From Syntrophaceae bacterium UBA6112 (lineage in GTDB: Bacteria > Desulfobacterota > Syntrophia > Syntrophales > UBA5619): 15,523 nt of DNA. Position numbers and translations under genes: made by a program. Of the stretch, positions 1 to 15,523 are shown one piece after another; the first letter of the stretch is position 1; every line of letters begins with the position of its first letter. The stretch is taken from NCBI GenBank assembly GCA_002423465.1, contig DIWG01000022.1, forward strand, positions 41,833 to 57,355, in the 5' to 3' direction. Below the pieces are notes generated by a model. It saw only the letters and a list, made by a program, of their open reading frames with translations, did not search any database and was not told the origin of the DNA.

Positions 1-736
1 CGATCCCCTGATCCTTCTTGAATTCGGTGGCCAGATACTCGATCAGTCGCTGGTCGAAATCCTCGCCGCCCAGATGTGTGTCGCCGTTCGTGGATTTGAC
101 CTCGAAGACGCCGTCGCCCAGTTCGAGGATCGAGATATCAAACGTCCCGCCGCCCAGGTCGAAGACGGCGATCTTCTCGTCCTTCTTCTTGTCCAGGCCG
201 TAGGCGAGTGCCGCCGCCGTCGGCTCGTTGATGATCCTGAGCACATTCAGCCCGGCAATCTTGCCGGCGTCTTTTGTCGCCTGCCGCTGGGAGTCATTGA
301 AGTAGGCCGGCACGGTGATGACCGCGTCGGTGATCTTCTCCCCGAGGTAATCGTCGGCCGTCTGTTTCATCTTGACCAGGATCATCGACGAGATCTCCGC
401 CGGGCTGTAGTTCTTGCCCCGGATCGTCACCTGGGCGTCGCCGTTTCCGGCTTCGGTGATCTTGAACGGGCTGACCGTCTTGTCGTACTGCACCTCTTTC
501 GAATTGTATTTTCTCCCGATGAGCCGCTTGATCGCGTAGACGGTGTTCTCCGAATTGGTGACGGCCTGTCGCTTCGCGACCTGCCCCACCTGCCGCTCTC
601 CGCTCTCCGTGAAGGCCACCATTGAGGGGGTCGTTCGATTCCCTTCCTGGTTCGCGATCACGACGGGGTCCCCGCCTTCCATCACCGCAACGCACGAGTT
701 CGTCGTTCCCAAATCGATCCCGATAATCTTTCCCAT
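1..736 (-). CDS. dnaK: Molecular chaperone DnaK (Hsp70), N-terminal ATPase domain; gene continues past window start (3' truncated, ~245 codons in window)
   Basis: Reverse complement of 734-736 is ATG. The translation [22 protein letters not shown]...[21 protein letters not shown]...[16 protein letters not shown]...[10 protein letters not shown] carries the hallmark Hsp70 motifs. An AGGAGG Shine-Dalgarno (rc of 747-754) lies upstream. The frame stays open to position 2. Confidence 0.97.
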
Positions 737-1398: not shown

Positions 1399-1983
1399 CT
1401 ATTTCATATCCGTTCTTTGAAAGAGTTTGAAATCCACCATCTCGCAGATCACATGCCCCACCGTGATGTGTACCTCCTGAATTCGAGGGGTACTGCCGGA
1501 AGAGACGTTCAGGGCGTGATCCACAATCTTCGCGACATCACCGCCGTCCCGTCCGGTCAGACCGATCGTCACCATGCCGATCTTCCTGGCGGCCTCCAGC
1601 CCCCTGACCACGTTTGCAGATGTCCCGCTGGTACTCATCCCCCAAGCGACATCCCCCTTATGGCCGATGGCCCGGATCTGCTTGCTGAAGATGTCCGCGA
1701 AATCATAGTCGTTGCCGATGCTGGTGATGATGGACGTATCGGTCGTCAGTGCAATCGCCGGAAGGGGCGGCCTTTCAATCGCGAACCGGTTCACGAATTC
1801 CGCCGCAAGGTGCTGGGCGTCCGCCGCGGACCCGCCGTTTCCGAAAAGCAGAATCTTGTTTCCCGCCTTCAGAGCCATTGTGACCGCTTCGACCGCGGCC
1901 ACGATCCGGTTGAGGTTTTCGTTGACAAAGGTCTCCTTGACCTGGCCCGACTCCCGGAATATCTTAATAATATAATCTTCCAT
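1399..1983 (-). CDS. gmhA: SIS-domain sugar-phosphate isomerase, GmhA (phosphoheptose isomerase)/DiaA family; ORF-track start at 2022 is a TTG, ATG at 1981-1983 preferred
   Basis: The translation MEDYIIKIF…NKILLFGNGGSAADAQHLAAEFVNRF…ERPPLPAIALTTD…GDVAWGMSTSGTSANV…VTIGLTGRDGG…STPRIQEVHITVGHVICEMVD matches the GmhA/SIS pattern. Its TAG stop overlaps the AGGAGA Shine-Dalgarno of grpE (TAGGAGAGTCATG on the minus strand), indicating coupling. Confidence 0.85.
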   Translation of the reverse strand: MEDYIIKIFRESGQVKETFVNENLNRIVAAVEAVTMALKAGNKILLFGNGGSAADAQHLAAEFVNRFAIERPPLPAIALTTDTSIITSIGNDYDFADIFSKQIRAIGHKGDVAWGMSTSGTSANVVRGLEAARKIGMVTIGLTGRDGGDVAKIVDHALNVSSGSTPRIQEVHITVGHVICEMVDFKLFQRTDMK

Positions 1984-4295: not shown

Positions 4296-5711
4296 TCAAA
4301 TGTTGGTTCGGGAAGCCCCGTCCACGCTGCTGAGGATTCGCTCCGCCGCACGGGCGAGGATCTCGTCGTGGTCGTGGTTCAGGGAAAAAACCCGGAGATG
4401 GACAACCCGGGCCGGGATGAAGCGGTAGATCTCCCGGAGAGGTTCGGGTGACGTCGTCCCCGTCGCGGGGTCGAAGATGTTCACCCGTTTGTCCGACTCC
4501 GCCATCGGATTGACCGGCCGCGGATCCTGCGTCGCCAGATCGACGCGGAAGGATTTTTTCTTCAGAGGACCGGGCAGACAGGAGCGGATCTGTTCCTCAT
4601 AGTCGGGCGCGGGGGAGAAGCGGGTTCCCCTCTGGATCTGGTCGATGGAAAGTTCAGCCGAAAACGACATCTTCCACTTGACCTCCCGGCGGTGGAGCTT
4701 TTCCCATTCTCGACCGAGCGTCCGTTTCCGCCGATCGGTGCTGTCGCGCCACGACCGGACCTCGGAATAGAGACGCCACTCATCGCAATCCAGGTACGCA
4801 TCCAGGTTATCAGCGGGATTGACCGGCAGGATCAGGTCCATCGTTTCGCGGAAGATCTCTTGGAGATGGAGATCCAGCGCCCGCGTGGTCCGATGGAAAT
4901 AGACGTTGGAATAGAGGTTCAGTCTCGCATTCAGAAAGCGGCCGAGGGCCGAGACGCCCGCCTGGTGGAGCGTGAGCCCCTGTTTCGTGAAGAAGGTATA
5001 GAAGCGAAGCCGGACGATGTCCACGATGTCCAGGGAAAACCCCGTCATGAAGGCGTCCCGCTGGACATAGTCGAGATTATCGACCGTGTAGGTGCCCGAA
5101 AATAGCTGGCGGAGCAGTTGAAGCCACCTGGGTTCGCCGTCGTCCCGTTCGTTCGGCATCCGAATCAGGAAGGCCACATGGGCGGGATCGAGCGCCTCGC
5201 CTTCGGCAAAGGGTCCCGACGGGCTCCGCCTGATTCGGGAGATCACCCTTCCCAGCTTCCGGCGGATGATCAGGCATCCCATTTCCTCATGGGTCAGCCC
5301 GTAGCCGTCCAGAAAATGGTCGTCGAAGAAATGGCCGAAGGGCCCGTGACCCACGTCATGAAGCAGCCCCGCTACCCGGAGAAGTTCCTCCACGCAATTT
5401 GTGGAGGGTGCATCCGGACAGACCTCCTTCAGGGACGGATAGAGGTGACGGCAGAACTCGCCTGCCATGTGCATTGTTCCAAGGGAATGCTGGAAGCGCG
5501 TGTGTTCGGCGGCCGGATAGACCCAGCGGGCGCTCTGAAGCTGGTAGATCCGCCGGAGACGCTGCACCCAGGGGGAGTCGATCAGGTCCTTCTCGGTCTT
5601 CTCACCGCCGTCCGCTGCGGGAACGGTAAAGGAGGCATACTTGTAAATGGGATCGGCAATCAGCGCCATCCCCTGGTAGGTCCCCGCATATTCGGCAGGC
5701 AACGTCTTCAT
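4296..5711 (-). CDS. HD-domain dNTP triphosphohydrolase-like protein (SAMHD1/COG1078, dGTPase-like superfamily); ATG at 5709-5711 preferred over the ORF-track TTG at 5747
   Basis: The translation …DPIYKYASFTVPA…IDSPWVQRLRRIYQLQSARWVYPAAEHTRFQHSLGTMHMAGEF…LLHDVGHGPFGHFFDD…YVQRD… contains the H…HD…D signature of HD phosphohydrolases of the dNTPase clade. An AAAGG Shine-Dalgarno lies about 8 nt before the ATG. Its TGA stop (rc of 4296-4298) overlaps the nrdD start region. Confidence 0.82.
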   Translation of the reverse strand: MKTLPAEYAGTYQGMALIADPIYKYASFTVPAADGGEKTEKDLIDSPWVQRLRRIYQLQSARWVYPAAEHTRFQHSLGTMHMAGEFCRHLYPSLKEVCPDAPSTNCVEELLRVAGLLHDVGHGPFGHFFDDHFLDGYGLTHEEMGCLIIRRKLGRVISRIRRSPSGPFAEGEALDPAHVAFLIRMPNERDDGEPRWLQLLRQLFSGTYTVDNLDYVQRDAFMTGFSLDIVDIVRLRFYTFFTKQGLTLHQAGVSALGRFLNARLNLYSNVYFHRTTRALDLHLQEIFRETMDLILPVNPADNLDAYLDCDEWRLYSEVRSWRDSTDRRKRTLGREWEKLHRREVKWKMSFSAELSIDQIQRGTRFSPAPDYEEQIRSCLPGPLKKKSFRVDLATQDPRPVNPMAESDKRVNIFDPATGTTSPEPLREIYRFIPARVVHLRVFSLNHDHDEILARAAERILSSVDGASRTNI

Positions 5712-5765
5712 GGTGGAACCTTTACAATATTCGCACCCAAATAGCAAACGGGAGGTTTTCCCTTC

Positions 5766-5794
5766 TTGACTTCGCGACAGGGTTCCTCTATATT
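5766..5794 (+). promoter_or_regulatory. Strong sigma70-type promoter for the SPFH gene: -35 TTGACT (5766-5771), 17-nt spacer, -10 TATATT (5789-5794); possible second promoter with TTGAAA (5809-5814) and GATAAA (5832-5837)
   Basis: Read directly: cTTGACTtcgcgacagggttcctcTATATTtccgg, in the AT-rich divergent intergenic region between the HD gene (minus) and the SPFH gene (plus). The ATG is at 5857 with an AGGTGA Shine-Dalgarno. Confidence 0.65.
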
Positions 5795-5807: not shown

Positions 5808-5856
5808 CTTGAAAACTTCTCACATCTTATTGATAAAACCCTTGCATAGGTGAACC

Positions 5857-7017
5857 ATGGGAACCAACAACGTTGTTTTTCTGGAAGTCATCGAATGGTT
5901 TGACGAATCAGGAAAGGAACTGGTCCACCGCATCCCGGAAAGCGGCTCCGGCGAGATCAAATGGGGAGCACAGATGACCGTCCGCGAAAGCCAGGCCGCT
6001 GTTTTCTTCTACAACGGAAAGGCTTACGACGCCTTCGGTCCGGGACGCCACACCCTCAAGACAGCCAACATCCCCCTGCTGACGAAGATCCTCAGCCTCC
6101 CCTGGGGCCTGACGAGTCCGCTGCGGGCCGAGGTGTACTTCACGAGCATGAAAATTTTCCCGAATCTCACATGGGGCACCCGCGACCCGGTCGCTTTCCG
6201 GGACAGGGAACTGGGGCTGATCCGCCTGCGGGCGTTCGGCGTCTTCAATCTCCGGATCCTCCAGCCGCTTCTTTTCATCAACAGCCTGGTCGGAACACAG
6301 GGGGTCTATACCACCGAGGCCGTCGCCGAATACCTGAACCGGGTCATCGTCTCGCGCTTCAACGACTTCATGGGGGAAAAGATCGACACGATCTTCGACC
6401 TGCCGGCGCGTTATGGCGAACTCTCCGAGGGGCTCCGCAAGCTCCTCGATAACGATTTCGCTCAGTTCGGTCTCGGGCTCGCGGACCTCTACATCAATTC
6501 GATCACTCCGCCGCCGGAAGTGCAGAAGGCGATTGACGACAAGAGTCGCCTGGGCGTCTTCGACGACATGAACAAGCTCCTCAAAATGAAGGCTGCCATG
6601 GCCATGGAAAGCGCCGCCCAGACGCAGGGCGAGGCGGGCGCAGGCCTCGGGATGGGGATGGGGTTCATGATGCCGGCGATGTTCGCCGAGGCCTTCCGGG
6701 GCGGATCCTCCCCGGCTGCCGCAACGGAGCTCATCACCTGCCCGGACTGCCGGCTTCCGATCCAGAAGGAGGCAAAATTCTGCCCCCACTGCGGACATCA
6801 GCTCTTGATATTCCAGAAATGCGCATTCTGCGGAAAGAACCTCCCCCCGAGCGCGAAGTTCTGCATCCAGTGCGGACGCCCCGTTGAGGAGAAACCTCAG
6901 GAGAAGAAGTGTCCTCATTGCGGCACGGCGAACCTGGCAAACGCGACCTTCTGCAACCAGTGCGGACAAAAATGTGACGGCTGCGGGGACGCCTTGCCGC
7001 AAGGCGTCCCCGCATAG
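5857..7017 (+). CDS. SPFH/band-7 family protein of the YdjI / COG4260 (so-called virion core protein-like, Band_7_1) type with C-terminal tandem zinc ribbons
   Basis: The N-terminal about 270 aa (MGTNNVVFLEVIEWFDESGKELVHRIPESGSGEIKWGAQMTVRESQAAVFFYNGKAYDAFGPGRHTLKTANIPLL…PLRAEVYFTSMKIFPNLTWGTRDPVAFRD…LIRLRAFGVFNLRI…) match the conserved signature of this SPFH subfamily. This is recalled from memory and should be verified by HMM. The C-terminal about 97 aa hold three complete CPxCG-x9-11-FCxxCG zinc ribbons plus a truncated fourth (CDGCG). Confidence 0.8.
   Translation: MGTNNVVFLEVIEWFDESGKELVHRIPESGSGEIKWGAQMTVRESQAAVFFYNGKAYDAFGPGRHTLKTANIPLLTKILSLPWGLTSPLRAEVYFTSMKIFPNLTWGTRDPVAFRDRELGLIRLRAFGVFNLRILQPLLFINSLVGTQGVYTTEAVAEYLNRVIVSRFNDFMGEKIDTIFDLPARYGELSEGLRKLLDNDFAQFGLGLADLYINSITPPPEVQKAIDDKSRLGVFDDMNKLLKMKAAMAMESAAQTQGEAGAGLGMGMGFMMPAMFAEAFRGGSSPAAATELITCPDCRLPIQKEAKFCPHCGHQLLIFQKCAFCGKNLPPSAKFCIQCGRPVEEKPQEKKCPHCGTANLANATFCNQCGQKCDGCGDALPQGVPA
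6724..7014 (+). repeat. Tandem zinc-ribbon-coding repeats (CPDC…CPHCG / CAFCG…CIQCG / CPHCG…CNQCG / CDGCG) at the 3' end of the SPFH gene
   Basis: The TGCccnCAcTGCGGa / TTCTGCnnnCAGTGCGGa codon blocks are visible at the DNA level. The protein shows a repeating CxxCG…FCxxCG pattern. Confidence 0.7.
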
Positions 7018-7018
7018 G

Positions 7019-8251
7019 GTGAACGAAACGCAGTGGCAAATTGAACAGGCCTGCCCCCAATGCGGGGCGCCGGTCACACTGGAGGAGACGGACCGGCTTC
7101 TCGCCTGCCCCTTCTGCCGGGTGAGGCTTTATCTCGCCCCGGAGCGAACCTTCCGCTACCTGATTCCACCGGCTTCCGGAGGGAAAGGCGAACTCTTCTA
7201 CATCCCCTACTGGCGCCTCCGAGGTTCTTGCTTCACCGTCGCCGCCCCCGGGATGACCAACCGCTTCGTCGATACACATGCTCTTGCCGCGGATATCCCG
7301 GATTTACCGCCTACCCTGGGTCTTCGGCCGCAGGTTCTCAAACTCCGCTTCGTTACCCCGGCCACGGAGGGAAAATTCCTCCCCGCAGACCGGACCGCCG
7401 AGCAGGCACTACCCGATCTGGGTAAGACACCGGGGGGCATTTTCTGCCGGATTTTTATCGGTGAAGCGGTCAGCCTGATTCATGCCCCGCTGCTTCTCCG
7501 GGGAGATACGCTCTACGACGCCATCCTGGGAAGAGCGGTTTCAACCGGCAATTTCGAGGATCTGGAACGTCCGCGCGCCTCGTCCTCCGCGCCGCCGGGT
7601 CAGGTCCATTTTATCCCGACCCTCTGCCCCGATTGCGGATGGGACATGGAAGGGGAAAGAGACTCGCTGGTTTTGCTTTGCCGGAACTGCAATTCGGCCT
7701 GGTCCTGTGCCGACCGGAACTTCGAAAAGGTGGCGTTCGCCTTGATGATTCCGCCGCCGGGATCGGAGGAGATCGCTATCCACCTCCCGTTCTGGCGGAT
7801 GAAGCCCCGATTCGAGGGGATCGATCTCGCCTCCTGGGCCGACCTGATCCGGATCGCAAACCTGCCGAAGGCGGTCACCCCCGCCTTGGAGGCGGCGCCT
7901 CTCTATTTCTGGTCGCCGGCCTTCAAGATCAACCCTGCCCTCTACGCCCGCTGGTCCCGTCAGATGACCATCTTCCGTCCGCTGGGCAGTGAGATCGATT
8001 GTCTCCCCGCCGGTTCCATCCATCCGGTCACTCTCCCTCCGGCCGAAGCGGCAGAAGGCATCATCATCAATCTCGCGCAGATGATCACGGATAGGCGAAA
8101 ACTCTATCCGAAACTTGCCGGCCTTCGGATCACGCTGGAAGAAGCCCGCCTGGAGTTCCACCCGTTTGTTCTCCATCACAATGAGTTCCTTCACGCCTCC
8201 CTTCGGGTCGTGATTGACCGAACCGCCCTCGCCTACGGCATCCGGATGTAA
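7019..8251 (+). CDS. Hypothetical protein, internally duplicated; each half starts with a CxxC-x13-15-CxxC zinc ribbon followed by a conserved IPPxxG…(Y/F)(I/L)P(Y/F)WR(L/M) block. GTG start 1 nt after the SPFH stop
   Basis: Half 1 is CPQCGAPVTLEETDRLLACPFCRVRLY…RYLIPPASGGKGELFYIPYWRL. Half 2 is CPDCGWDMEGERDSLVLLCRNCNSAW…ALMIPPPGSEEIAIHLPFWRM. The 6884 start in the ORF track would overlap the SPFH gene by 134 nt and encodes Arg-rich junk, so GTG 7019 (VNETQWQIEQACPQCG) is preferred. The first in-frame ATG lies after the first ribbon and would cut it. Confidence 0.7.
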   Translation: MNETQWQIEQACPQCGAPVTLEETDRLLACPFCRVRLYLAPERTFRYLIPPASGGKGELFYIPYWRLRGSCFTVAAPGMTNRFVDTHALAADIPDLPPTLGLRPQVLKLRFVTPATEGKFLPADRTAEQALPDLGKTPGGIFCRIFIGEAVSLIHAPLLLRGDTLYDAILGRAVSTGNFEDLERPRASSSAPPGQVHFIPTLCPDCGWDMEGERDSLVLLCRNCNSAWSCADRNFEKVAFALMIPPPGSEEIAIHLPFWRMKPRFEGIDLASWADLIRIANLPKAVTPALEAAPLYFWSPAFKINPALYARWSRQMTIFRPLGSEIDCLPAGSIHPVTLPPAEAAEGIIINLAQMITDRRKLYPKLAGLRITLEEARLEFHPFVLHHNEFLHASLRVVIDRTALAYGIRM

Positions 8252-8270
8252 CGAACCCTTCTCCATAAAG

Positions 8271-8308
8271 AATGATTGTCATTGCAGACCCCGTTTCTTT
8301 CAATCATT
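8271..8308 (+). promoter_or_regulatory. AT-rich dyad AATGATTG-N22-CAATCATT containing a Fur-box-like core (AATGATTGTCATT), overlapping a putative promoter: -35 TTGTCA (8276-8281), 17-nt spacer, -10 TTCAAT (8299-8304)
   Basis: By hand alignment, AAGAATGATTGTCATTGCA matches the classic Fur 19-mer GATAATGATAATCATTATC at 12 of 19 positions, with the AATGAT…CATT core intact. A second half-site-like AATCATTAC lies at 8302-8310. It sits upstream of the ABC transporter gene in an otherwise GC-rich context. Confidence 0.4.
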
Positions 8309-8459
8309 ACAAAATGAACGCATCGCGAGGGAAAGGGCGGATGGCGAAAAATTCCCTTGTCAGGAATGACCGAATCGATTAGAAAATACCGCTTTCGCAA
8401 CGCTTCCGGAAACGAAAAAAGGAATGGCAGAACGAATGATATCAGGAGAGGTCGGCGGA

Positions 8460-12324: not shown

Positions 12325-13728
12325 TCAGCGGGAGCCGGCGAACCAGCTCTTGAGACGCGCGGGCCAGCGCAGGGGGCTCCGCAGGAACTGCCATGCGGTG
12401 TTCGCCGCCGCCAGGCTCTTGCCGTCCAGGACCGTCTCGCCGTAGACCTCCCGGTTGTAGGCGCCGATGATGAGATCGACAGGCGGTTTCAAGGCAGGGA
12501 AACGGCCGTTCAAACGCGTCCCGAACTCAAGGGGCGTCTCACCGCGATCGTTCTGAAAACCGCTGCGTCCGGCCCATGCCAGGAGTGCGCCGTAGAGTTC
12601 GGCCGCCTGGGGATAGCCCATGACGCCGTGAAAAATCTTCCTCCGAAGACCGGCCCAGAAAGCCCGCAGCGCCGCGAACCGCGCCGAAATCGGCGTCGCC
12701 CGGCGACCGCCCCCCTCGGTCCGGGAGAGAAGCCATTTCACAATAAAATAAAGAACGACGGCAGAGCCGACGACCAGTACGAGCAGCATCAGCCCCCAGA
12801 GCCCCCAGCCCAAGATCTTTTCCAGCCACGCCATCCACCAACTGGGCGTCTGCGGCACGATCTTGTCCAGATCTGCCAGAGGGGAGGAGGAGTTCATCGC
12901 AACCTCGGCAGGACGATTGCCGTGCGGTCCGAAGATAAAGCGCAGGATGGCGATCAATACCGGGACGAGCGGCCGGCCGGCCGCCGTGAGTGCGCGGTAT
13001 CCCACCTGCGCGGCCGCGGTCAGGCCGGGCAGGAAAAAGAGCAGCAGCCCTCCGGTGCCGAGAAGCACCGCCGCGAAAAAGCTCAGGATGACGCCGATCC
13101 CCCGGAACCCGGGGAGAAAGGCTTTCGTAGCGGCGCGGCCCCGCATACGGGCGATGCCGATCGACAGAAGGCCGAACAGGAAGAAGGGAAAAACGAAGAG
13201 GAGAGAGAGGGAATCCTCCGCCATCGCTTCCCCTTTGGTCAGGGCAACGAGTTTGATGATGAAGAGGGCAAAAAAGGCGCCGAGGCCGAGATCGAAGCGG
13301 TTGCAGGTGTGGAAATATCCCGTGTGCCTGCGGGCAAAAGCCACCCCCAATGCGCACAGGATCAGGATCAGCAGGAGATTCATCGAAAGGATGAGCCCTT
13401 CCGACAGATCCTGCGGACCCTCCCAAAACGCAGCGAGCCAGCCGCCCTGCAAAAGCGGATACGAATCGTAATAGATCCCATGGATCAGCAGCAAAGCGGC
13501 GCAGATCAAGCCGAGCATCCAGATCACCAGGACGCTCACGATCCGCCATCCCTTCCCCGTCGAGAAGCGGCCCACGAAAGCGGCCAGGGCAAAGGCGGCG
13601 ACGGTCTCGAAAAACGGGAAAGGGCGATGCATGGTCATCAGCGACAGGAACATGGCCCAGCCCAGAAACCAGCTCAGCTCCATGGCGCCGTTGGTGAGAT
13701 ACCAGAGCATCCCCTTGCGCGTAGCCAT
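12325..13728 (-). CDS. Polytopic membrane protein with C-terminal DUF4129-like domain (third gene of the MoxR-DUF58 cassette)
   Basis: The 467-aa translation has many hydrophobic helices. The C-terminal region …RGETPLEFGTRLNGRFPALKPPVDLIIGAYNREVYGE… resembles DUF4129. Its ATG (rc of 13726-13728) shares one nt with the TGA stop of the DUF58 gene. The competing ORFs 12539-13858(-) and 12628-13818(+) are Arg/Pro/Gly-rich shadows. Confidence 0.8.
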   Translation of the reverse strand: MATRKGMLWYLTNGAMELSWFLGWAMFLSLMTMHRPFPFFETVAAFALAAFVGRFSTGKGWRIVSVLVIWMLGLICAALLLIHGIYYDSYPLLQGGWLAAFWEGPQDLSEGLILSMNLLLILILCALGVAFARRHTGYFHTCNRFDLGLGAFFALFIIKLVALTKGEAMAEDSLSLLFVFPFFLFGLLSIGIARMRGRAATKAFLPGFRGIGVILSFFAAVLLGTGGLLLFFLPGLTAAAQVGYRALTAAGRPLVPVLIAILRFIFGPHGNRPAEVAMNSSSPLADLDKIVPQTPSWWMAWLEKILGWGLWGLMLLVLVVGSAVVLYFIVKWLLSRTEGGGRRATPISARFAALRAFWAGLRRKIFHGVMGYPQAAELYGALLAWAGRSGFQNDRGETPLEFGTRLNGRFPALKPPVDLIIGAYNREVYGETVLDGKSLAAANTAWQFLRSPLRWPARLKSWFAGSR

Positions 13729-14927
13729 CAGCCAAGGCCCTCCCCGTCACGGCGATCATCGAACCCATCGATTGTCGCGGGGCCTGCGGCGCCGACTGCC
13801 GCCGAATCGGCACGATAGTCGCGGCTGTAAAACAGGAAAGGCACCCGCCGCTGCGCAAAATAGTCCCGGGCCGTCCGGGCCGTCTCGTCCTTGTCGAGCG
13901 AGAAATAGAGGCAACTGACCCCCCAGGGCATCCTCAGATGAAGGCAGAACGTCTCGATGAGCCCCAGGGACGGCTCCATCCGCATTCTGGCAAGCGCTTC
14001 GAGCAGGATGGCGAGCTGGCGAGGATTTCTCGTCACCGGCACGATGGATGAAGCTGCCCCCGCCATCCGGCCGTTCGTGGCCAGCCCCACGGCGCAGCCG
14101 CGTTCGGCGAGCCGAACGGCCACCGATGCAACCGTTTCCAGCATGCGATCGAACGCCTCCTCCGCCCCGTTTTGCGCGAATGCGCCGACATCGACGACGA
14201 GCAGGATCTTCTCCTGCGCCGAGGGCTCGAAAATCTTCTCCTGCAGCTTGTGATGGCGTGCGGTCGCCTTCCAGTGGATGTATTTCGCGGGCCGTCCGTG
14301 CTGGTAGTCCCGGGTGCCGAGGATGTAGACGGGGTCGTCCACGGGGCTCTCGGACCCCGGAATGCCGAAGAAATCGCGCCGCGGCAGCGAAAGCGTCTTG
14401 AGCGGAATGAGGCGGGGATAGACCACCACCTCGATCGTTTCGGCCATCTCCTTCTTCTTCAGGAAGAAGCCGAACAGATCGCCCGTGATAAGGCCGATCG
14501 GCCCGATTCTGTGGATTCCCCTGCGCAGTGCGGTGAGCTCCCATTGGAAGCTCGCCTTCTGATACCACAGCAGGCCGGTTTCAGCCTTGACCGCGGTTCC
14601 GGCGCCATCGCCATGGATGAGGCCGCCGACGGGCGCCCGGACCTCCAGCCGCACGGGGAGGATTTTTCTGTTTTCCGCCGTCGCCTTTAGAACGAGCTTT
14701 TCGCCGGGAAACACCCTGCGCCTGTCGAGGCCGACACCGCATTCGATGCCGGCCAGGCTCCACCGGCTCCAGAGTTTCGCCCCGGCGGCGACCCCGAGAA
14801 GGGTGAGGCAGAGCACCGTGAGGTCCCGCTGGCCGTTGAGCAGGGCCATGAAGAGAAAGAGGCCGGCAAAGGCCAGCACGAGCGGGACAAAAAAAAGCGA
14901 GGGCAGCGGGCGATCGGCGTCGTTCAT
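13728..14927 (-). CDS. DUF58 family protein (MoxR-associated, VWA-like); ATG at 14925-14927 preferred, alternative GTG at 14937-14939 overlapping the moxR stop
   Basis: There are two N-terminal TM helices. The conserved DUF58 motif is …VYILGTRDYQHGRPAKYIHWKATARHHKLQ… (GxRxYxxGDxxRxIdWKAtAR-like). A GAGGGAG Shine-Dalgarno lies immediately before the ATG at 14927. Confidence 0.85.
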   Translation of the reverse strand: MNDADRPLPSLFFVPLVLAFAGLFLFMALLNGQRDLTVLCLTLLGVAAGAKLWSRWSLAGIECGVGLDRRRVFPGEKLVLKATAENRKILPVRLEVRAPVGGLIHGDGAGTAVKAETGLLWYQKASFQWELTALRRGIHRIGPIGLITGDLFGFFLKKKEMAETIEVVVYPRLIPLKTLSLPRRDFFGIPGSESPVDDPVYILGTRDYQHGRPAKYIHWKATARHHKLQEKIFEPSAQEKILLVVDVGAFAQNGAEEAFDRMLETVASVAVRLAERGCAVGLATNGRMAGAASSIVPVTRNPRQLAILLEALARMRMEPSLGLIETFCLHLRMPWGVSCLYFSLDKDETARTARDYFAQRRVPFLFYSRDYRADSAAVGAAGPATIDGFDDRRDGEGLG

Positions 14928-14935
14928 CGTCTCCC

Positions 14936-15523
14936 TCACGCGCCGGGAGCGGGCACGGGGATCTGACGGACGATCTCTTCGAGGAGCGGCTCCTGGTTCT
15001 CCCCCCGCAGCCGCTCCTCTTCCTTGAGGATCAGGCGGTGCGCCAGGACGGGCACGGCCAGGGTCTTGATGTCGTCGGGAAGCACATAATCCCGGTCGCG
15101 GAGCGCCGCCCAGGCCTGGCCGGCGCGCATAAGGCTCAGCGAACCCCGCGGACTTGCGCCGAGCCGCAGAGAAGGACTGCGGCGGGTCGCGCTCACGATG
15201 GCCGTGATGTACTCCTTCACGGGCATGGATATGCGGATCTTCTTGCGGGCCTCCTGCAATCCGGCAATCTGTTCGGGGGTCGCCACGGGCGCCAGTTCCC
15301 GCAGCGGGTCCTTCTCCCGGAAGCGTTCGAGGATCGCGATCTCCTCCTGCTGATCCGGATAACCCAGCCGGATGCGCAGCAGGAACCGGTCGAGCTGCGC
15401 CTCGGGCAGGGGAAAGGTTCCCTCGAGCTCGATCGGATTCTGGGTCGCCATGACGAAAAAGGGATGGGGCAGGCCGTATGTTTTCCCGTCCACCGTGACC
15501 TGGCGCTCCTCCATGCTCTCCAG
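14936..15523 (-). CDS. MoxR-family AAA+ ATPase, C-terminal about 195 codons; 5' end lies beyond the window
   Basis: The translation …LESMEERQVTVDGKTYGLPHPFFVMATQNPIELEGTFPLPEAQLDRFLLRIRLGYP… is the conserved MoxR sensor-2/C-terminal region. The reading frame is open to the window end. Confidence 0.9.
   Translation of the reverse strand: MESMEERQVTVDGKTYGLPHPFFVMATQNPIELEGTFPLPEAQLDRFLLRIRLGYPDQQEEIAILERFREKDPLRELAPVATPEQIAGLQEARKKIRISMPVKEYITAIVSATRRSPSLRLGASPRGSLSLMRAGQAWAALRDRDYVLPDDIKTLAVPVLAHRLILKEEERLRGENQEPLLEEIVRQIPVPAPGA

Follow-up and report, generated by a model that had tools for sequence, protein, structure and literature searches.

The stretch of DNA analysed here (the window) is 15.5 kb of contig DIWG01000022.1 from Syntrophaceae bacterium UBA6112, and all coordinates are window positions unless another locus is named. 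Near its middle, divergent from an HD-domain gene, lie two adjacent genes, the first encoding an SPFH protein (gene 1) and the second an internally duplicated zinc-ribbon protein that is called P2 (Table 1). SPFH proteins are universal membrane organisers that oligomerise into membrane-apposed rings or cages and there hold or restrain partner proteins. To our knowledge, the clients of most bacterial SPFH proteins are not known, and the only member of the Band_7_1 subfamily to have been studied, Bacillus subtilis YdjI (also named SamI), is understood solely through its Psp-linked partners. An earlier interpretation of this DNA, made from its letters without database searches (the sequence-only reading), had singled out the two genes as a module of possible interest.

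Gene 1 adds a member to a known family. Its N-terminus matches the Band_7_1 profile (PF13421/COG4260) with an E value of 3.5e-61 and 206.9 bits against a cutoff of 24, in agreement with the YdjI-type assignment made in the sequence-only reading. Closer to the C-terminus, residues 293-371 match the DZR and Zn_Ribbon_1 families above cutoff. The cysteines of this region form three complete Cys4 ribbons (C295/298/309/312, C322/325/336/339 and C352/355/366/369) and a half ribbon (C373/376), the same three and a half that had been counted in the sequence-only reading. Since the CxxC count is exactly six in 57 of 60 P2-linked SPFH orthologs, three ribbons represent what is conserved, the half ribbon being a local, lineage-specific extension. 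No transmembrane (TM) helix was found in the protein, the maximum 19-residue Kyte-Doolittle mean being 1.42, which is not TM-grade. Between the protein's SPFH domain and its ribbons lies a Met/Gly-rich segment, which is kept along with the three-ribbon tail in 57 of the 60 orthologs and whose pattern, MKAAMAME...G-x-GMGMG-x-MMPAMFA, is nearly invariant in orthologs from Syntrophales to Nitrospinaceae. Such conservation is unusual for a plain linker and suggests a functional element, for example one that binds membrane or peptide; the corresponding region of YdjI has been described as low-complexity (bioRxiv 10.64898/2026.02.06.704340).

For direct comparison, the B. subtilis pspA-ydjGHI operon was recovered from a metagenome contig using a published ydjG primer as the probe. 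The window SPFH protein is 24% identical to YdjI over 318 amino acids (aa) (E=4e-28), and the two are collinear end to end in an alignment that takes in the Met/Gly-rich region and the terminal CPxCG...CPxCG ribbon. YdjI has been reported to possess a C-terminal zinc finger and no membrane anchor (bioRxiv 10.64898/2026.02.06.704340; PMC11237479), and the recovered sequence likewise carries a C-terminal ribbon. A ribbon on the SPFH protein is the norm for this family and no substitute for the ribbon protein YdjG, so that the contrast drawn in the sequence-only reading is wrong; only the number of ribbons differs (three versus one).

Table 1. Features of the SPFH-P2 pair, followed by the flanking genes of the window.
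Feature	Position	Strand	Remarks
Gene 1 (SPFH gene)	5857-7017	+	ATG 5857, TAG 7015-7017; 386 aa; soluble YdjI/SamI-type SPFH protein; divergent from HD-domain gene
Band_7_1 SPFH domain	5926-6555	+	residues 24-233; profile positions 2-210 of 211
Met/Ala/Gly-rich hydrophobic segment of gene 1	6583-6696	+	residues 243-280, KMKAAMAME...GLGMGMGFMMPAMFAEAF
Zinc-ribbon array of gene 1	6739-6984	+	C295...C376; three Cys4 ribbons and half ribbon
Sigma70-like promoter candidate	5766-5794	+	TTGACT-17 nt-TATATT; 10/12 matches; 63 nt upstream of SPFH start; consensus match only
Shine-Dalgarno-like AGGTGA	5848-5853	+	ahead of ATG 5857; read from sequence
P2 (gene 2)	7019-8251	+	GTG 7019, 1 nt past SPFH stop; 410 aa; internally duplicated zinc-ribbon protein; follows gene 1, divergent from HD-domain gene
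Alternative P2 start	6974-7018	+	GTG 6974; JGI gene call P0001, 425 aa; 44-nt overlap with SPFH 3' end
P2 N-terminal module	7019-7594	+	residues 1-192; ribbon C12/15/30/33 (nt 7052-7117), YIPYWR hairpin, GLRPQ motif, SLIHAP strand
P2 C-terminal module	7595-8248	+	residues 193-410; ribbon C203/206/221/224 (nt 7625-7690); LPFWRMK, ADLIRxANL, FWSPAFK, RQMT, YHPF
dnaK	2-736	-	minus-strand translation matches HSP70, E=1e-124
grpE		-	after dnaK in window order
SIS_2 gene	1399-1983	-	phosphosugar isomerase-like; between grpE and nrdD
nrdD		-	between SIS_2 gene and HD-domain gene
HD-domain gene	4296-5747	-	483 aa; HD and HD_assoc_2
SbmA/BacA-type ABC transporter, DUF169, zinc alcohol dehydrogenase			downstream of P2, in that order
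MoxR-DUF58-DUF4129 operon	12325-14939	-	order on window: DUF4129-DUF58-MoxR

P2 has the extent that had been read from the sequence, beginning a single nucleotide (nt) after the SPFH stop codon and running for about 410 codons. Many homologs start at the equivalent position (MNxxNWQIEQ), and because their N-termini align to 7019, the upstream GTG used in the Joint Genome Institute (JGI) gene call is the less likely start. The limits of the two modules were drawn from a 76-member alignment, the secondary structure of an AlphaFold2 model and hhalign comparison between the modules. Each half opens with a CxxC-x14-CxxC ribbon, continues with a [YL]-x-P-[YF]-W-R hairpin and closes with a Y-x-P-[FL] strand; the C-terminal half also contains a helical insertion (ADLIRxANL, FWSPAFK, RQMT). 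The paralogy of the halves, also suggested beforehand, is supported by BLASTP (E=2e-5 over 65 aa) and by hhalign of the family sub-alignments (probability 96%, E=1.6e-9, 175 columns), and a signal persists when the ribbons are removed (probability 66%, E=5.6e-5).

The sequence-only reading could match P2 to no family, and database searches bear this out. Nothing in Pfam, NCBIfam, PADLOC or PHROGs scored above cutoff, the sub-threshold matches being zinc ribbons of 25-40 residues, and 30 diverse family members scanned singly likewise matched no family above cutoff. More specifically, membership in the RBR/IBR group is not indicated, as IBR_1 matches were sub-threshold (best E=0.0015 among the 30 members) and no E1, E2 or Ubl genes were found nearby. 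The AlphaFold2 model, built with 76 homologs, has a predicted local distance difference test score (pLDDT) of 87.5 and a predicted template modelling score of 0.87. A fold search with this model against the PDB and BFVD gave no fold match, the hits in BFVD being ribbon-sized only. Approximately 340 of the 410 residues lie outside any ribbon and have no match in Pfam, NCBIfam, PDB or BFVD. No TM helix was found in P2, and its most hydrophobic stretch (residues 141-159, Kyte-Doolittle 1.65) is a beta strand in the model. P2 is a large family missing from the domain databases (1095 relatives in a 90%-clustered database; clustering at 50% identity gives 845 clusters, of which 390 have E<=1e-30; almost all members are 400-430 aa), with a confidently predicted fold for which solved structures offer no match. 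No description of the family or of the SPFH-P2 pair was found in the searchable literature.

Members of the P2 family have been annotated automatically as RpoP/RPC12-like, as DUF1610 'RNA-binding Zn-ribbon' or as PriA-like, and the weak PDB sequence matches are to ribosomal or RNA-polymerase ribbons. These labels would suit a nucleic-acid-binding or regulatory protein, for instance a factor in transcription or translation, the supply of which is governed by sequestration on an SPFH scaffold, and SamI is indeed reported to restrain signalling output in Bacillus (bioRxiv 10.64898/2026.02.06.704340). All such similarities, however, are confined to ribbons of about 30 residues and fall below family cutoffs. 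P2 moreover possesses no helix-turn-helix or other DNA- or RNA-binding domain, and its charge is near neutral (42 K+R versus 43 D+E). A role of this kind for P2 is considered very unlikely.

P2 loci were confirmed in at least 574 species-representative genomes, and linkage was assessed by tblastn of the window proteins against the best 80 of these loci, 73 of which have enough upstream sequence to be evaluated. The 80 loci belong to Syntrophales, Syntrophobacter, Syntrophorhabdaceae, Desulfobacterales, a Nitrospinaceae metagenome-assembled genome and others. An SPFH gene is located upstream of P2 on the same strand in 62 of the 73 evaluable loci; the gap between the two genes is 60 nt or less in 41, and the genes overlap by 14 nt in 23. 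The arrangement extends to a Desulfobacula branch in which P2 is 34% identical to the nearest locus sampled and 35% identical to the window protein, where independent NCBI/ENA gene calls give a Band_7_1+DZR protein followed by P2 with overlaps of 14-23 nt. Of the two proteins, the SPFH protein is the more conserved (65-93% identity across orders, versus 40-75% for P2). Where genes are inserted between the two, they are mutually unrelated (FadL, MCP, UbiA, PAS kinases, TPR, STAS, MsrAB), and all-against-all clustering of the open reading frames (ORFs) of the 80 loci yielded no third conserved gene family. The commonest other neighbours (XerC-like integrase, ABC-F, HD, NrdD, NUDIX and sigma factor genes) each occur in at most 10 of the 80 loci and are housekeeping genes whose frequency reflects lineage synteny.

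No PspA_IM30, TPM or NfeD genes were found among the window ORFs or within 10 kb on either side, the flanks being read from precomputed Pfam assignments on JGI contigs TOLCLC_10021250 and Draft_10001131, and no pspA/ydjG-like/TPM cluster recurs in the 80 related loci. Thus, the SPFH and P2 genes are co-inherited, usually translationally coupled, and without any other constant partner, so that the earlier view of a self-contained, conserved two-gene pair lacking pspA holds beyond the window itself. As a side observation, two Syntrophales genomes have a UbiA-family prenyltransferase gene (L015 2753-3670 and L030 5012-5968) as the direct upstream neighbour of P2; in one of these it stands between the SPFH gene and P2, and in the other there is no SPFH gene. 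This proximity may be coincidence or may point to a tie, particular to the lineage, with the metabolism of membrane lipids or quinones.

The same neighbourhoods bear on a possible role in defence. The sequence-only reading had raised a phage response, and certain conflict systems do contain SPFH and zinc-ribbon domains, so that the pair could in principle be an anti-phage or abortive-infection module or the cargo of a mobile element. Against this, PADLOC gave no match for the SPFH protein and only a ribbon-sized one for P2 (E=0.025), PHROG matches were confined to the ribbons, and no relatives were found in 2.9 million viral contigs or in BFVD. The surrounding genes have housekeeping functions and show synteny at the level of the lineage (dnaK, grpE, nrdD, ABC-F, xerC, sigma factor), and the slow divergence of the SPFH protein across orders is typical of vertically inherited core genes. 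A defence function is accordingly regarded as extremely improbable.

The expression signals are compatible with a single transcript. A sigma70-like candidate promoter precedes gene 1, in a sequence where two such sites were found versus 0.6 expected in shuffles, and its TTGACT and TATATT hexamers recur in the same place in the closest relative (L002). Close relatives share GGTGAACCATG at the Shine-Dalgarno-like site. Between the SPFH and P2 genes nothing resembling a promoter or a terminator was found. A search upstream of 57 SPFH orthologs (sigma54, CIRCE and sigma32-like patterns, and 8-mer enrichment) revealed no regulatory motif common beyond close relatives. The earlier claim of one strong promoter serving both genes is thus supported as to a candidate ahead of gene 1 and the lack of one between the genes; that the two genes share it is plausible.

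Since the closest studied relative of gene 1 is encoded beside a ribbon protein, the relationship of P2 to YdjG deserves attention. YdjG consists of two ribbons, an uncharacterised domain and a C-terminal TM helix (PMC11237479); in the recovered operon its two ribbons are tandem and match PF08271 with 41.1 bits (cutoff 29), and the protein ends in ...AAWFSGIAGGTFLALKLVSLMMGGGF. The part of YdjG that follows its ribbons is a YpeB-related, NTF2-like domain. P2 might then be a very divergent, TM-less relative of YdjG (SamG), the window encoding part of an ordinary Psp-type module whose PspA and TPM protein (YdjH) are encoded elsewhere in the genome. Both proteins carry two Cys4 ribbons and both genes adjoin a YdjI-type SPFH gene. 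A [YF]-[IV]-P-[FY]-W strand follows a ribbon in each, and the order 'P-V/I-x-x-P...E-A, two helices, long beta hairpin from Y-x-P-F' can be traced in P2 at about residues 335-400 and in YdjG at about 95-181. The hhalign probability between the two families reaches 80-87%, but across one ribbon only (87% over 33 columns), and falls to about 4% once the ribbons are removed. P2 lacks the TM helix with which YdjG ends, and its ribbons (residues 12-33 and 203-224) are not tandem but 190 residues apart. PF08271 is not among the matches of P2 at E<=1 and reaches that level in 7 of 30 family members, with a best E of 2.1e-4. The lack of pspA and TPM genes around the window and of any recurrent cluster of them among the 80 loci likewise speaks against a Psp-type module. 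An AlphaFold2 model of YdjG (30 close homologs) reached a pLDDT of 50.5, too poor for a fold comparison with P2. On these grounds orthology of P2 to YdjG is rejected, although one P2 sub-domain, which faintly resembles YdjG, may be remotely related to it; a divergent YdjG relative in a scattered Psp module is judged unlikely. Identity with YdjH or NfeD was rejected as well, as P2 matches neither PF04536 (TPM_phosphatase) nor PF01957, nor does either rank among the 25 families that the 30 diverse P2 members match most frequently, while YdjH itself matches PF04536 with E=7.7e-22. The sequence-only reading had named in advance what would tell against it, namely an ortholog of YdjG or YdjH in P2, a pair that is not syntenic, or an SPFH N-terminus outside Band_7_1; P2 is no such ortholog, the pair is syntenic and the N-terminus matches.

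Taken together, collinearity with YdjI, the tight linkage of the pair, the lack of a third gene and the conserved ribbon tail count in favour of an SPFH-P2 complex, as do the lack of a TM helix in either protein and the case of YdjI, whose soluble state has been established by experiment and whose membrane recruitment needs SamG/SamH, the signalling of which SamI restrains (PMC8581546; bioRxiv 10.64898/2026.02.06.704340). The interpretation put forward, to which we assign somewhat less than an even chance, is that the two genes form one operon encoding an obligate, stoichiometric SPFH scaffold-adaptor complex in which P2 replaces SamG/SamH and no PspA is encoded by the operon. The SPFH protein, by analogy with other SPFH proteins, would build ring- or cage-like oligomers under the inner membrane, probably contact the bilayer through its Met/Gly-rich hydrophobic segment, and project a flexible array of three zinc ribbons. 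P2 would act as a non-enzymatic, pseudo-dimeric adaptor or client made of two 'zinc ribbon plus beta-rich domain' modules, and might dock on the SPFH oligomer by way of the ribbon array, the SPFH domain or both. It would thereby take the place of SamG/SamH, and through them of PspA, in these Gram-negative anaerobes, and the complex could organise a process close to the membrane or hold it in check. For P2, a structural or adaptor role is favoured over catalysis because Cys, Pro, Gly and aromatic residues make up most of the invariant columns among 30 diverse family members, with no catalytic-looking set of His, Ser, Lys or Asp.

Several observations weigh against the proposed SPFH-P2 complex. 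In B. subtilis two-hybrid experiments YdjI binds YdjH and PspA but not the ribbon protein YdjG (PMC8581546), so that an analogy in which a ribbon partner binds the SPFH protein is without precedent. P2 is found away from any SPFH gene, among unrelated neighbours, in 11 of the 73 evaluable genomes; at the P2 loci without an upstream SPFH gene no alternative conserved partner was seen, the neighbours being Usp, nitroreductase, UbiA, MORN and ParA-like genes. In one Syntrophaceae ortholog (L026 5133-6010) nearly the whole ribbon array is lost, the protein ending ...FKTSSFCNQCGER at about 292 aa, and P2 still follows it directly; the locus is either nature's own test of the need for ribbons or an assembly error. 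Membrane association in a system with no TM partner is speculative. The description of the pair as a membrane-associated module in the sequence-only reading thus loses ground, as both proteins lack TM helices and the neighbourhood encodes no membrane partner.

Finally, invariant or near-invariant polar residues of P2 (Q105, D167, R66, D85, R103 and D275) could equally mark an active or ligand-binding site. Such a site would fit an enzyme or ligand-binding client of new fold that the SPFH protein merely localises or gates: the non-ribbon regions of P2 are highly conserved, R278, N281 and T317 are near-invariant beside the residues just listed, and SPFH cages are known to enclose enzymes, as HflK/C does with FtsH. 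No catalytic motif or cofactor-binding signature is recognisable in P2, however, its model matches no enzyme fold, and structural residues dominate the invariant set in the most diverse alignment. An enzymatic or ligand-binding client is deemed quite unlikely, and P2 would more probably serve as part of a scaffold.

Elsewhere in the window, two plus-strand ORFs opposite the dnaK-nrdD region were rejected as genes. The ORF at 74-625 matches the Pfam family NAD-GH (PF10712, E=1.6e-48), which is a textbook case of a spurious-family match and an antisense shadow of dnaK. The ORF at 1390-2193 (267 aa) has no family match and is a shadow of the minus-strand SIS_2 gene, which is what its apparent tblastn 'conservation' in other loci reflects. 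The HD-domain protein has a weak PADLOC dGTPase match (E=2.4e-7), and its gene overlaps nrdD by 4 nt; an HD/dNTPase-like gene beside an anaerobic ribonucleotide reductase gene suggests control of the deoxynucleoside triphosphate pool. This gene adjoins the SPFH gene in Syntrophales only (8 loci). On the other side of the pair, a 172-nt intergenic region (8252-8423) separates P2 from the SbmA/BacA-type transporter gene; it contains no recognisable terminator and has a weak minus-strand promoter-like site at 8303-8275. The transporter gene is not conserved beside the pair in other genomes. Strong AT skew on the plus strand (0.34 at 12.5-14 kb) coincides with two genes downstream of moxR, one for a polytopic DUF4129 membrane protein rich in Phe and Leu and one for a DUF58 protein. 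The moxR gene is intact and is cut by the window end; an apparent frameshift in it was ruled out, having been produced by Ns in the JGI record together with the window edge. More specifically, TOLCLC_10021250 has consecutive Ns in place of sequence that the window does contain (L083 ~15302-15362), by which the JGI moxR call was split in two. The tRNA and Rfam scans of the window were empty.

The wider interest of the pair lies in the joining of a known SPFH subfamily to a wholly different partner, of a predicted fold without match, in environmentally important anaerobes (syntrophs and sulfate reducers) and with P2 loci in at least 574 species genomes. It provides a compact two-gene system in which to ask what the C-terminal ribbons of SPFH proteins bind, whether soluble SPFH proteins can assemble without PspA, and what the P2 fold is for. 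It also draws attention to a large family for which Pfam has no entry and whose members carry the mistaken labels 'RNA polymerase subunit RpoP' or 'PriA-like'. At the same time it is one of many conserved gene pairs whose function is inferred, and it is best described as a previously undescribed take on the theme of the SPFH-plus-partner operon.

Comparison with known systems places the pair within this theme. The ribbons of P2 and those of the SPFH tail are Cys4 ribbons of an ordinary kind, such as are found in generic families (DZR PF12773, Trm112/YbaR-like, RpoP/RPC12, LysW, IBR), and the best structural matches of P2 (Trm112-like 2hf1/2jr6, LysW and RBR IBR/RING2) span only 30-60 ribbon residues. 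The SPFH-NfeD operons (E. coli QmcA-YbbJ and YqiK-YqiJ) and HflK/C-FtsH follow a like logic, in which the gene for an SPFH scaffold is coupled tightly to that of a dedicated partner or client; their SPFH proteins and partners, however, are membrane-anchored and the partners belong to known families (NfeD OB-fold, FtsH), whereas both proteins here are without TM helices and the partner is of a new family. The pspA-ydjGHI (pspA-samGHI) operon is the closest counterpart, with an SPFH protein of the same PF13421 subfamily that likewise lacks a TM helix, contains a Met/Gly-rich linker and carries a Cys4 ribbon at its C-terminus, and whose gene is in an operon with one for a protein bearing two zinc ribbons. 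In contrast to that operon, the pair lacks pspA, a TPM-domain YdjH and a TM-anchored YdjG; the gene order is reversed, with the SPFH gene first rather than last; the SPFH tail has three ribbons rather than one; and the partner is a soluble, internally duplicated protein whose homology to YdjG cannot be detected beyond the ribbon. A further, more doubtful proposal is that P2 founds a structurally new family that is the dedicated partner of a clade of soluble, three-ribbon YdjI-type SPFH proteins in Thermodesulfobacteriota and Nitrospinota, in a PspA-independent and possibly cage-like assembly that may be sub-membrane or fully cytoplasmic. If true, the pair would add a third kind to the bacterial SPFH systems represented by SPFH-NfeD/HflKC-FtsH and by PspA-SamGHI.

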